Shown piece after piece: positions 39,243-40,749 of a stretch of DNA of 64,000 nucleotides. This DNA comes from Escherichia phage Pu-Krd-SF3. The position numbers and the translations under genes are program-made. Location: the sequence record PQ249397. One strand, 5' to 3'. The notes beneath the pieces are model-generated. The model ran no database searches. It had not been told where the DNA came from and saw only the letters and a list, made by a program, of their open reading frames with translations. Within the stretch, counting starts at the first letter, position 1; the number at the start of each line of letters is the position of its first letter.

Positions 39243-39731
39243 ATGAATATATTTGAAATGTTACGTATAGATGAAGGTCTTAGACTTAAAATCTATAAAG
39301 ACACAGAAGGCTATTACACTATTGGCATCGGTCATTTGCTTACTAAAAGTCCATCACTTAATGTTGCTAAATCTGAATTAGACAAAGCTATTGGGCGTAA
39401 TTGCAATGGTGTAATTACAAAAGATGAGGCTGAAAAACTCTTTAATCAGGATGTTGATGCTGCTGTTCGCGGAATTCTGAGAAATGCTAAATTAAAACCA
39501 GTTTATGATTCTCTTGATGCTGTTCGCCGCTGTGCATTGATTAACATGGTCTTCCAAATGGGAGAAACCGGCGTAGCAGGATTTACTAATTCTTTACGCA
39601 TGCTTCAACAAAAGCGCTGGGATGAAGCAGCAGTAAATCTAGCCCAATCTAAATGGTATCGTCAGACACCTAATCGCGCGAAACGCGTAATCTCAACATT
39701 TAAAACAGGAACTTGGAAAGCGTATATATGA
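39243..39731 (+). CDS. e: Endolysin (T4 lysozyme)
   Basis: 162 aa; [33 protein letters not shown]... matches remembered T4 lysozyme. Confidence 0.9.
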
Positions 39732-40009
39732 AAACATATAGTGAATTTTTATCAGAATCTATTCTTAACGAAGCTACTGACACATTTGCAACTAAGCTAG
39801 GTGCAGCTTTGGTTGAAGCCGAAAGTCTATTAGCACGTATTTCTGAACTTGCTAGTAAGATAGATACTCGCAAATTTGAGCGCACCAGTGATATCGTTAA
39901 GCTTGAAGCCTTGTTGCGTATGTGCGATAAACCGGAAGAAATCGCTAAGAACGGCTCGCTGATGAAACAACGTCTTGAAAAATATATTTCAGGCGCTTCA
40001 GAAAAATAG
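39728..40009 (+). CDS. Small protein with divergent CTS-like leader
   Basis: ORF track 39713-40009; start at [20 protein letters not shown]-coupled to lysozyme stop. Confidence 0.45.
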
Positions 40010-40011
40010 TT

Positions 40012-40041
40012 GTTTACTTCCTCCAAGGGTTTTGATACTAT
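40012..40041 (+). promoter_or_regulatory. Early promoter upstream of denV
   Basis: gtttac at 40012, tactat about 18 nt downstream. Confidence 0.6.
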
Positions 40042-40068
40042 ACATTCATCGACTACTTGGAGGAAATT

Positions 40069-40482
40069 ATGACCCGTATCAATTTAACACTTGTTTCTGA
40101 ATTGACCGACCAACATCTTATGGCTGAGTATCGTGAATTACCACGCGTATTTGGTGCAGTCCGTAAACATGTTCAAAACGGTAAACGTGTAAAGGATTTT
40201 AAAATCTCTCCAACATTTATCTTAGGCACAGGACACGTAACATTCTTTTACGACAAACTCGAATTTTTACGTTTACGTCAAATTGAGCTAATCGCTGAAT
40301 GCTTGAAACGTGGTTTCAAAATCAAGGACACGACTGTCCAGGATATTTCCGACATCCCTGTCGAATTTCGTAATAATTATGTCCCGTCCGAAGCGTCCAT
40401 TGCGATAAGTCAAGCTCGCTTAGATGAAAAAATTGCTCAACACCCTACTTGGTACAAATACTATGGTAAATCAATTTACTAA
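40069..40482 (+). CDS. denV: Endonuclease V (pyrimidine dimer DNA glycosylase)
   Basis: ORF track 40057-40482; from [12 protein letters not shown]...[19 protein letters not shown] matches remembered T4 endoV; GGAGG RBS. Confidence 0.85.
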
Positions 40483-40488
40483 GGAAAA

Positions 40489-40749
40489 ATGAAAATGTAT
40501 CAAGAATTTATCGTTGAAGCAGATGCCAAAGGTTCTAAATTTAAAGTTAAAGCTTTCATTGGTGATGCGGAAGACTTTGACTCATTAAAACGTAATGGGT
40601 ATTCTTTCTTAGGTGGCGATGGTAAAGAAATCAACACCTATGCAAAACGTAGTGAAATTGCTTATGTTGTAGCAAGTCCTAAAGTAGATGTTGACGATAT
40701 TGGATATGATTTTAACAACTTCGGAATTATTTCTGGCGGTAAAGCTTAA
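40489..40749 (+). CDS. CTS-bearing small protein (candidate internal protein, IPII-like by position)
   Basis: 86 aa; N-terminus MKMYQEFIVEA is an IP-type capsid-targeting leader. Confidence 0.5.
   Translation: MKMYQEFIVEADAKGSKFKVKAFIGDAEDFDSLKRNGYSFLGGDGKEINTYAKRSEIAYVVASPKVDVDDIGYDFNNFGIISGGKA

Follow-up and report, generated by a model that had tools for sequence, protein, structure and literature searches.

The region around denV in Escherichia phage Pu-Krd-SF3 raises the question why its gene order is unlike that of phage T4 and what the small genes on both sides of denV encode. An earlier note on this DNA stated that ipII and ipIII of T4 lie together between e and denV, and suggested that internal-protein (IP) genes around denV had been rearranged or replaced. 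The statement on T4 is right, as T4 has the order nudE-e-ipIII-ipII-denV-vs.8. In the window, i.e., the whole stretch of 64,000 nt that was analysed (PQ249397), the order is e-ip93-denV-ip86-ipIII. Relative to T4 the IP genes were both rearranged and replaced: ipIII lies downstream of denV instead of upstream, ipII is gone, and two IP genes that have no T4 counterpart, ip93 and ip86, are present. We propose that cassette exchange at this locus accounts for the departure from the T4 gene order. Both small ORFs are probably real genes of the T-even IP class in one of two known hypervariable loci, whose products would be packaged and likely directed against host defence. The locus comprises the following features:

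39206-39248, + strand: hairpin that sequesters the e Shine-Dalgarno sequence (folding energy -16.2 kcal/mol, z -5.2)
39209-39216 and 39222-39229, + strand: late-promoter motifs TATAAATA within the e hairpin (motif match)
39243-39731, + strand: gene e (endolysin/lysozyme), 162 aa, Tequatrovirus-type
39728-40009, + strand: ip93, 93 aa, RB69ORF127c family, paralogue of ip5
40009-40073, + strand: putative promoter with a stem-loop in front of denV (folding energy -21.1 kcal/mol, z -4.0; this stability was reached by 0 of 200 shuffles)
40069-40482, + strand: denV (endonuclease V, pyrimidine-dimer glycosylase), RB69-type allele, Pfam PF03013 (Pyr_excise), phrog_1183
40489-40749, + strand: ip86, 86 aa, RB69ORF125c family, leader MKMYQEFIVE followed by A
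40754-40782, + strand: promoter-like site upstream of ipIII (TTTACG, 17-nt spacer, TATAAT, TG extension; 10/12 match in the scan)
40801-40842, + strand: conserved 42-nt island of RBS and CTS-coding sequence, proposed left joint of the variable slot, direct-repeat family D1
40811-41386, + strand: ipIII orthologue, 191 aa, phrog_5341
41389-41406, + strand: short GC hairpin after ipIII, weakly terminator-like (-9.4 kcal/mol, z -3.3)
41421-41515, + strand: conserved sequence to the right of the variable slot (right flank), ahead of the vs.8 homologue

Gene order compared with T4

The ATG of the 93-aa ORF (39728-39730) overlaps the TGA stop of e (39729-39731), so that the ATGA overlap which the earlier note took as coupling to the lysozyme stop is real. 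The 86-aa ORF that the note placed behind denV starts 6 nt past the denV stop. In the deposited record its start is the second ATG (40495), and use of the first ATG (40489) restores the MKMYQEFIVE leader. The gene that follows, which the note had called IPIII-like, is a true ipIII orthologue as judged from its sequence: its product matched T4 IPIII over the full length with 177 of 192 identical residues (92%; E 3e-133), and nucleotide identity to T4 ipIII was 93.4%.

The window was not colinear and identical with T4 over 39.7-41.4 kb. The homology of T4, and also of T2 and T6, ended at 39726, denV was 77-79% identical, and ipIII was found on the other side of denV. Gene e itself showed 92.6% nucleotide identity to T4, 98.6% to ime09 and 81% to RB69. 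There was no ipII in the whole window, where tblastn of IPII gave leaders only. When both small proteins were compared with IPII by BLASTP, the match was confined to the 11-aa leader (residues 1-11). With a match in the leader only, ip93 and ip86 are not IPII orthologues by sequence.

Both small genes lie within the e-to-vs.8 interval, which is one of two IP loci. The window as a whole encodes Ip3 and five further CTS genes, and neither Ip1 nor Ip2.

The two small genes and their leaders

The earlier note considered both small ORFs as CTS-type genes (CTS, capsid-targeting sequence), and the key residues for targeting and processing are indeed present in each. Mutagenesis of IPIII revealed that Y4 and F7 matter for targeting, and residue 8 and E10 for processing (PMC9026906). 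All four positions are retained in ip93 and ip86, and both N-termini resemble MKTYQEFIAE with Y4 and F7, as we required for a CTS. When the window was translated in six frames, the pattern MK.[YF].EF[ILVMA] was found 6 times, and all six instances open an ORF of the + strand. None turned up in 200 second-order Markov simulations, so that its frequency is far beyond chance. As gp21 sites we accepted L/I-X-E closing a propeptide of 10-19 residues. The predicted sites are L8-S-E10 and the better conserved L13-N-E15 in ip93, where 10 leader residues are followed by SILNE and then A, giving candidate cuts after E10 and E15. In ip86 the predicted site is I8-V-E10.

The small genes share with the T4 IPs the targeting and processing residues of the leader, a location beside e and denV, and a similar small size, but their mature parts are dissimilar and not basic. 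No similarity of mature ip93 or ip86 to IPI, IPII or IPIII was detected. The mature T4 proteins IPI*, IPII* and IPIII* have pI values of 9.0-9.7, whereas ip86* is acidic (pI 5.2) and ip93* near neutral (pI 6.3 or 8.1). The historical description of IPs as basic mature proteins, which is not strictly defining, does not apply to these two. A role of acidic ip86 as a DNA mimic was also considered and dropped, since its net charge is only about -1.

By full-length homology ip93 belongs to the ip5/RB69ORF127c family. It matched the 'internal head protein' family phrog_3499 (E 1.2e-46) and was 48-51% identical to ip5 of T2, PP01 and AR1 over 84 residues (PP01: 51%, E 1.5e-25). Both leaders are longer, with I/L-X-E at position 15. 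While ip5 sits in the other IP locus (the ipI locus, after 57B), ip93 is joined to the end of e. Phages ime09 and Lutter each showed two places matching ip93, i.e., they have both ip5 and ip93. The gene was present at ≥95% aa identity in 232 phage records. It is clearly under purifying selection: dN/dS was 0-0.07, and it differs from ime09 at 7 sites and from UFV13 at 3, every one of them synonymous. The AF2 model of ip93 was all-helical with moderate confidence (pLDDT 72.7, pTM 0.35). Foldseek found no match to it with E below 0.6 in PDB and BFVD, and therefore no function can be claimed from the fold.

The ip86 product showed 93% aa identity to RB69ORF125c and matched the 'internal head protein' family phrog_2667 (E 8e-21). 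An exhaustive HMMER search with mature ip86 returned 5 cluster representatives, among which P0018 (44% identity) is a distant relative. The AF2 model of ip86 was unusable (pLDDT 48.6), and hence it was left out of the Foldseek search.

Pfam and NCBIfam held no family for ip93, ip86 or ipIII, a sequence search against PDB chains gave matches at chance level only (E at least 0.24), and a word-indexed protein search found only close relatives. On the basis of these searches both families are small and restricted to phages. No known inhibitor resembled ip93 or ip86 in the sequence search, nor the ip93 model in the fold search. Literature searches on RB69ORF127c and RB69ORF125c and on their detection in virion proteomes yielded no relevant work, and no proteomic report of ip93 or ip86 in virions was found.

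Mosaic structure and proposed recombination joints

From 39728 to 40810 the window was 95-100% identical to RB69, a Mosigvirus. Nucleotide identities to RB69 were 97.2% for ip93, 97.6% for denV and 96.6% for ip86, and the intergenic stretch 40750-40810 matched at 60 of 60 positions. The denV gene, which serves UV repair, was only 79.5% identical to T4 and likewise 79.5% to ime09; its dN/dS was 0.02-0.09. The flanking genes are Tequatrovirus-like and not RB69-like. The genes nudE, e, vs.8 and vs.7 shared just 77-86% identity with RB69, and among the genes flanking the module only vs.6 was close to it (93.9%). RB69 (NC_004928) has the same left part, e-ORF127c (93 aa, ATGA-coupled)-denV-ORF125c (86 aa). 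It differs in carrying ORF124c and ORF123c after the 86-aa gene instead of ipIII, and the leader of its ORF127c is scrambled (MKTYMNFYQNLSLNE), a point against the reading proposed here. Judged by these identities, the locus is an RB69-type module that is joined at the ipIII CTS to a T4-type ipIII cassette, in a Tequatrovirus backbone.

The joints could be placed by comparing where homology stops and resumes. It ended at 40522 for ime09 and at 40840-40842 for RB69, LF82-9 and UFV13, and it resumed at 41414 (T2), 41421 (ime09) and 41426 (T4). The combination denV-ip86-promoter-CTS is common to 159 records with ≥80% query coverage; many of them break at query positions 461-463, corresponding to 40840-40842 of the window. 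The segment 40801-40842 formed an isolated island of 88-95% identity in T4, T2 and ime09. Further copies of this repeat are the CTS-coding sequences of ip86 (40489-40520) and ip93 (39728-39759). On the other side of the slot, the right flank was 97.8% identical to T4 over 90 nt, compared to 87.5% for the body of vs.8, and in T4 the right-flank sequence directly follows the denV stop. In UFV13 the 40801-40840 segment is duplicated and encloses an additional cassette. The occupants of the slot after denV/ip86 vary among other phages: ipII in LF82-9 and JM10, Ip4 in ime09, and ORF124c and ORF123c in RB69.

These breakpoints fit a recombination-driven shuffling of IP cassettes (Repoila et al. 1994; Arbiol et al. 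2010). As far as the work of Repoila et al. (1994) is reported in PMC2839356 and PMC3012670, the T-even IP loci were polymorphic and such shuffling was proposed. According to PMC2839356, promoter/stem-loop elements in these loci have been proposed as the drivers of shuffling, and IP variants number more than 30. The arrangement in part resembles the PeSL (promoter-early stem-loop) cassettes of T4-type phages, in which variable genes lie between short conserved promoter/stem-loop linkers (Arbiol et al. 2010; Comeau et al. 2014). As in PeSL cassettes, the breakpoints cluster at conserved linkers, and insertion, loss or replacement would affect whole cassettes. Unlike in PeSL, the sharpest joint is the RBS and CTS-coding 42 nt, which is within coding sequence and not a stem-loop, and significant folding into a stem-loop is limited to one of the two intergenic elements. 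In our proposal, homologous recombination would act at the RBS and CTS-coding segment (30-42 nt), at the early-promoter/stem-loop elements and at the conserved right flank. The RB69-type module would consist of ip93, promoter/stem-loop, denV, ip86 and promoter.

The main stem upstream of denV spans 40018-40065, where UUCCUCCAAG pairs with CUUGGAGGAA, the denV Shine-Dalgarno sequence. A GTTTAC...GATACTATAC arrangement is located at and inside the stem. The element is homologous to the upstream region of T4 denV, with an HSP from 40000. We infer that it has promoter activity; the sigma-70 scan called no promoter at this element. The spacer upstream of ipIII folded with z -0.27, versus z -4.0 for the denV-upstream element. 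Late-promoter motifs at the locus were found only upstream of e. The hairpin in which they lie is presumably the switch between early and late translation of gene e in T4, which McPheeters et al. reportedly described in 1986. Structured RNA in 41421-41520 was rejected as a candidate, as the fold was no better than shuffles (z 0.17), and Rfam gave no match in 39000-42200.

Alternative readings and proposed function

Seen against the T4 reference alone, the locus resembles a transposition plus a replacement, and it could be taken for a private, recent rearrangement of this genome in which ipIII was transposed across denV and ipII was lost. This is hardly credible and already refuted by the distribution of the layout among deposited records together with the RB69 order. 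The 2.4-kb locus (2401 nt compared) is 100% identical in Escherichia phage Pu-Krd-SF4 (PQ759884.1), and 73 records have the order found here, with ≥80% of the 2.4-kb region covered in one colinear place. The T4-type order occurs in only 41. The 159 records with denV-ip86-promoter-CTS and the 232 sharing e-ip93 also argue against a private event, as does the same left part in RB69, which belongs to another genus. The layout is a common variant that had been sequenced before, at a hotspot of gene swapping on record since 1994, and is ordinary in this sense.

Cassette shuffling could also have left one or both small ORFs as non-functional pseudogenes that still bear a leader. For ip86 several observations point in this direction: its dN/dS of 0.25-0.63, its occurrence as two separate ORFs in UFV13, several database entries with truncations or internal deletions (P0009, P0013, P0016, P0019), the annotation 'hypothetical protein' in the deposited record and the poor AF2 model. 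It may be dispensable or decaying. However, the dN/dS values derive from only 6-9 substitutions and are not statistically robust, and 165 of the 217 phage records with ip86 matches, from two genera, keep the full-length 86-aa ORF at ≥80% aa identity. The 44%-identity relative P0018 retains the body and a CTS-like leader (MQTFHEFLVE), and the purifying selection on ip93 speaks against decay of that gene. We regard the pseudogene explanation as unlikely. Rated as quite unlikely is a purely structural role of packaged proteins, in core/scaffold assembly or DNA condensation in the head. It would agree with the slower head assembly, reduced burst and increased polyheads of a T4 IPIII mutant and the co-purification of IPs with gp22 (PMC9026906), and with about 1000 IP molecules per head that touch DNA via lysines (PMC3012670). 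Yet acidic ip86* and near-neutral ip93* fit poorly as DNA counter-ions, and specific defence targets are now available for all three T4 IPs. The extreme presence/absence polymorphism among close relatives, with no IP gene at the e-denV locus of T6, argues against a conserved structural role.

We favour real IP-class genes with a likely anti-defence role. The CTS would dock ip93 and ip86 onto the prohead scaffolding core, and the prohead protease gp21 would cut the leader after L/I-X-E, after E10 in ip86 and after E10 and/or E15 in ip93. The mature proteins of about 8-9 kDa would go into the head together with the DNA and be injected on infection. Our view of expression timing comes from gene position: ip93 would be translationally coupled to e, just past the e late promoters, and ip86 likewise to denV. 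By analogy with T4 Ip1, Ip2 and Ip3, the injected proteins likely neutralise a specific host defence, e.g., a GmrSD-type type IV restriction enzyme. Each of the three T4 proteins inhibits a different GmrSD variant (Silas et al. 2025, PMC12373910), and IPIII is required for growth on ECOR17, where expression of CTS-less IPIII rescues growth (PMC9391042). Ten further ip genes showed no inhibition of five additional active GmrSD systems (PMC12373910), so that an anti-GmrSD role of ip93 and ip86 is drawn by analogy only.

A more far-reaching version, which we put forward tentatively and consider doubtful, sees ip93 and ip86 as specific inhibitors of not-yet-known defences, e.g., additional subtypes of GmrSD or a different first-response nuclease, with ip86 perhaps unlike the basic T4 IPs in its action. 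The 42-mer of RBS and CTS could work as an integron-like in-frame recombination site, by which any ORF could be swapped into a packaging-competent cassette, and denV would be carried between genera as a passenger.

IPs enter the cell with the phage DNA, and since the three T4 proteins disarm distinct GmrSD type IV restriction enzymes, the IP repertoire helps to set host range, which bears on the choice of therapy phages. The locus provides a clean case of intergeneric module exchange with breakpoints at CTS-coding sequence. As papers and databases already cover this type of locus, its genes and the idea of shuffling, it is an illustration rather than a discovery. The layout entered GenBank with the RB69 genome.

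Gene order between e and vs.8

The window is a segment of a Tequatrovirus (T4-like) genome. The genes around denV, including two small ORFs designated ip93 and ip86, were arranged as follows.

Genes of the e-denV-vs.8 interval
38751-39206, + strand, nudE
39243-39731, + strand, e (endolysin)
39728-40009, + strand, ip93, 93-aa ORF
40069-40482, + strand, denV
40489-40749, + strand, ip86, 86-aa ORF
40811-41386, + strand, ipIII orthologue, 191-aa ORF
129-nt spacer after the 191-aa ORF
after this spacer, + strand, homologues of vs.8, vs.7 and vs.6 (GrcA)

The ATG of ip93 (39728-39730) and the stop codon of e, TGA at 39729-39731, overlap, which confirms the ATGA coupling. 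The denV stop and the ip86 start were 6 nt apart. In the deposited record ip86 starts at the second ATG (40495); the first ATG gives back the leader MKMYQEFIVE. The earlier note had described ip93 as coupled to the lysozyme stop, ip86 as following denV and an IPIII-like gene as coming next, and every detail was confirmed.

In T4 the order is nudE-e-ipIII-ipII-denV-vs.8, with both internal protein (IP) genes between e and denV, as the earlier note had stated. The 191-aa protein was identical to T4 IPIII at 177 of 192 residues and is a true IPIII orthologue. Alignment of ip93 and ip86 with IPII was confined to the 11-residue leader, and neither IPI nor IPII was encoded anywhere within the window. 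DNA homology to T4 covered e and stopped at 39726. For denV and its upstream region identity to T4 was only 77-79%; ipIII was 92-93% identical to T4 ipIII at the DNA level, but located across denV from its T4 position. T4 homology restarted at 41426 with the sequence that directly follows the denV stop in T4. Relative to T4, the locus combines replacement (ipII absent, two IP genes without T4 counterpart present) with repositioning of ipIII downstream of denV. It supports the suggestion that IP genes around denV were rearranged or replaced; colinearity with T4, named beforehand as the finding that would speak against it, was not seen in the alignment.

Within the spacer before the vs.8 homologue, positions 41421-41515 (+ strand) were 97.8% identical to T4, the vs.8 body only 87.5%. 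In the T4 annotation its counterpart makes up the N-terminal portion of a 219-aa vs.8. In the window this frame meets a stop (ATT TAG, around 41540-41545), and vs.8 of the record starts at 41564. The long vs.8 start of T4 may be over-extended. The 41421-41515 segment had no Rfam match and no significant fold; its conservation may reflect a role as right-hand recombination joint or an unrecognised signal. The vs.6 homologue (42441-42803, + strand), an autonomous glycyl-radical cofactor (GrcA/YfiD-like), was 97% identical to T4 vs.6.

An RB69-like module and its joints

The genes nudE and e were Tequatrovirus-like: identity of nudE was 98% to T4 and 77% to RB69, and for e the values were 92.6% and 81%. 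The RB69-like stretch began with the first ip93 base and reached right up to the ipIII ribosome-binding site, with 97.2% identity to RB69 for ip93, 94.8% for the following spacer, 97.6% for denV, 96.6% for ip86 and 60/60 positions for the promoter spacer. The ipIII gene was T4-like (93.4%) and is absent from RB69; downstream of it the genes were Tequatrovirus-like again. Several joints coincided with sequence coding for the capsid-targeting sequence (CTS), the N-terminal leader removed by the prohead protease gp21.

Ends and restarts of homology
39726, homology end for T4, T2 and T6
40522, homology end for ime09, where the ip86 CTS-coding stretch ends
40840-40842, homology end for RB69, LF82-9 and UFV13, where the ipIII CTS-coding stretch ends
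41414-41426, homology restart for T2, ime09 and T4

The break at 40840-40842 was also found in many of the 159 records that share denV, ip86, the promoter and the CTS. The 42-nt segment 40801-40842, comprising ribosome-binding site and CTS, was conserved as an isolated island in T4, T2 and ime09 (88-95% identity) and was duplicated around an additional cassette in UFV13. The three CTS-coding stretches of the locus constitute a direct-repeat family within the window. Breakpoints at linkers, the duplicated segment and the CTS repeats are together consistent with an exchange of cassettes in which short conserved linkers serve as sites of homologous recombination; the in-frame CTS-coding sequence would be the sharpest such linker.

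The layout is not peculiar to Pu-Krd-SF3. Escherichia phage Pu-Krd-SF4 (PQ759884.1) matched positions 39200-41600 (2401 nt) at 100% identity. In 73 phage records the colinear match extended over at least 80% of this 2.4-kb region, and 232 records have ip93, at a protein identity of at least 95%, directly after e. The T4-type interval e-ipIII-ipII-denV was limited to 41 records, with T4 itself accounting for many of these; T4's own gene order is thus a minority arrangement. RB69 (genus Mosigvirus) has e-ORF127c-denV-ORF125c-ORF124c-ORF123c-vs.8, ime09 has e-ORF127c-like-denV-Ip4-vs.8, and in LF82-9 a T4-like ipII comes after e-ip93-denV-ip86. UFV13 carries an additional ORF124c-like cassette ahead of ipIII and a broken ip86. 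In T2, e is followed by Ip4 plus remnants and denV is absent; in T6, regB directly follows e and the entire ip/denV/vs.8-vs.3 block is missing. T2 and T6 are classically more UV-sensitive than T4, which fits their losses in the denV region.

The IP-gene arrangement around denV was known before. An identical sequence is on deposit, and its ORFs carry annotations as internal head or virion proteins. The RB69 genome made the same layout public, and publications from 1994 and 2010 onwards describe the polymorphism and the mechanism proposed for it. The e-denV interval is the hypervariable IP locus of Repoila et al. 1994, as cited by Arbiol et al. 2010, Rao and Black 2010 and Comeau et al. 2014. 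Our modest additions are a clean RB69-type module with a co-transferred denV allele inside a Tequatrovirus backbone, the mapping of breakpoints to CTS-coding sequence, and the minority status of the T4 order.

Leaders, expression and possible function of ip93 and ip86

The motif MK.[YF].EF[ILVMA] had six matches in the six-frame translation of the window, all at ORF starts on the + strand (31273, 31606, 34978, 39728, 40489 and 40811), and was absent from all 200 Markov-simulated sequences. The CTS-type leader is no chance feature. Mutagenesis of IPIII assigned Y4 and F7 to targeting, and residue 8 and E10 to gp21 processing (PMC9026906); ip93 and ip86 both retain all four. Since L13-N14-E15-A16 is invariant in the ip93 family and residues 9-12 are variable, cleavage of ip93 after E15 appears at least as likely as after E10. 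RB69ORF127c (RB69 comparison locus, 1741-2022) was 97% identical to ip93 at the DNA level, yet its first 12 residues read MKTYMNFYQNLS, so that E6 and L8-x-E10 are lost and LNE15|A is intact. A local, compensated frameshift apparently accounts for this leader, which is either a natural variant or an error in the sequencing of the old record.

The ip93 protein belongs to phrog_3499 ('internal head protein') and was 51% identical to ip5, which PP01 and T2 carry at the other IP locus. All nucleotide differences from ime09 (7/7) and UFV13 (3/3) were synonymous, which indicates strong purifying selection. Its AF2 model was all-helical with moderate confidence. The ip86 protein corresponds to RB69ORF125c (93% amino acid identity) and matched phrog_2667; a distant relative with 44% identity retains a CTS-like leader. 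Constraint was weaker than for ip93 (dN/dS 0.25-0.63, from 6-9 substitutions), and broken or truncated copies exist, which suggests recurrent decay of the gene. In UFV13 (1915-2167 of its comparison locus) ip86 was split into two separate ORFs; in several other genomes and metagenomes (P0009, P0013, P0016, P0019) it was internally deleted or truncated. Mature ip86 is acidic (pI 5.2) and ip93 near neutral, unlike the basic T4 IPs (pI 9.0-9.7). Neither protein had a function-giving match in Pfam, NCBIfam or PDB sequences, and a fold search with the ip93 model gave none either.

Only two late-promoter motifs (TATAAATA) were present in the locus, just upstream of e and both inside a hairpin sequestering the Shine-Dalgarno sequence of e. 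Because ip93 is coupled to e, it should be made late, during prohead assembly. A second strong hairpin, at 40018-40065 (-21.1 kcal/mol, z -4.0), ties up the denV Shine-Dalgarno sequence; the pairing partner is a segment located ahead of a promoter-like GTTTAC...GATACTATAC element. The same design is found upstream of T4 denV. On transcripts reading through from upstream, this pairing would translationally mask denV and the coupled ip86.

The CTS of T4 IPs binds the scaffolding core, and gp21 cleaves after L/I-X-E; about 360 copies per IP remain in the head and are then injected. The 10-residue CTS by itself is enough to package foreign proteins. By analogy, ip93 and ip86 would follow the same route of packaging, cleavage and injection. 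Each of the T4 proteins Ip1, Ip2 and Ip3 blocks a single type IV restriction enzyme of the GmrSD type, without cross-protection; ten further ip genes, assayed on five more active GmrSD systems, inhibited none of them (PMC12373910). Growth on ECOR17 requires IPIII (PMC9391042). Our best guess, drawn purely by analogy with the T4 proteins, is that ip93 and ip86 enter the cell with the DNA and inhibit specific host defences. Given the results of Silas et al. 2025 and the lack of T4 ipI and ipII orthologues in the window, Pu-Krd-SF3 should be sensitive to the GmrSD enzymes targeted specifically by Ip1 and Ip2, unless its other IPs make up for their absence.

Other CTS genes and tRNAs in the window

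CTS genes of 90 and 102 aa (31273-31545 and 31606-31914, + strand; phrog_7673 and phrog_2667) fill the ipI locus after 57B. A 188-aa ORF at 34978-35544 (+ strand), between tRNA-Arg and the e.8-e.2 block and outside both classical IP loci, combines a canonical N-terminal CTS (MKTYAEFLTE|A) with a mature part that is basic (pI 9.5). It matched phrog_2280 ('unknown function') and was present in 164 phage records, as 'hypothetical protein' in all records listed (e.g., RB14ncORF136c). This ORF is a candidate for an unannotated internal protein at a third locus; Arbiol et al. 2010 state that T-even genomes carry no IP genes elsewhere.

The tRNA cluster (32555-34015, + strand) comprised nine genes (Gln, Leu, Gly, Pro, Ser, Thr, Met/CAU, Tyr and Arg), with a segB-like homing endonuclease gene preceding tRNA-Arg, whereas T4 has eight tRNA genes and lacks tRNA-Tyr. 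Window coordinates corresponded to PQ759884.1 coordinates minus 63999 for features up to 34015 and minus 64000 from 34978 on, which indicates either a 1-nt indel relative to that record in between or that the window stems from a near-identical genome.
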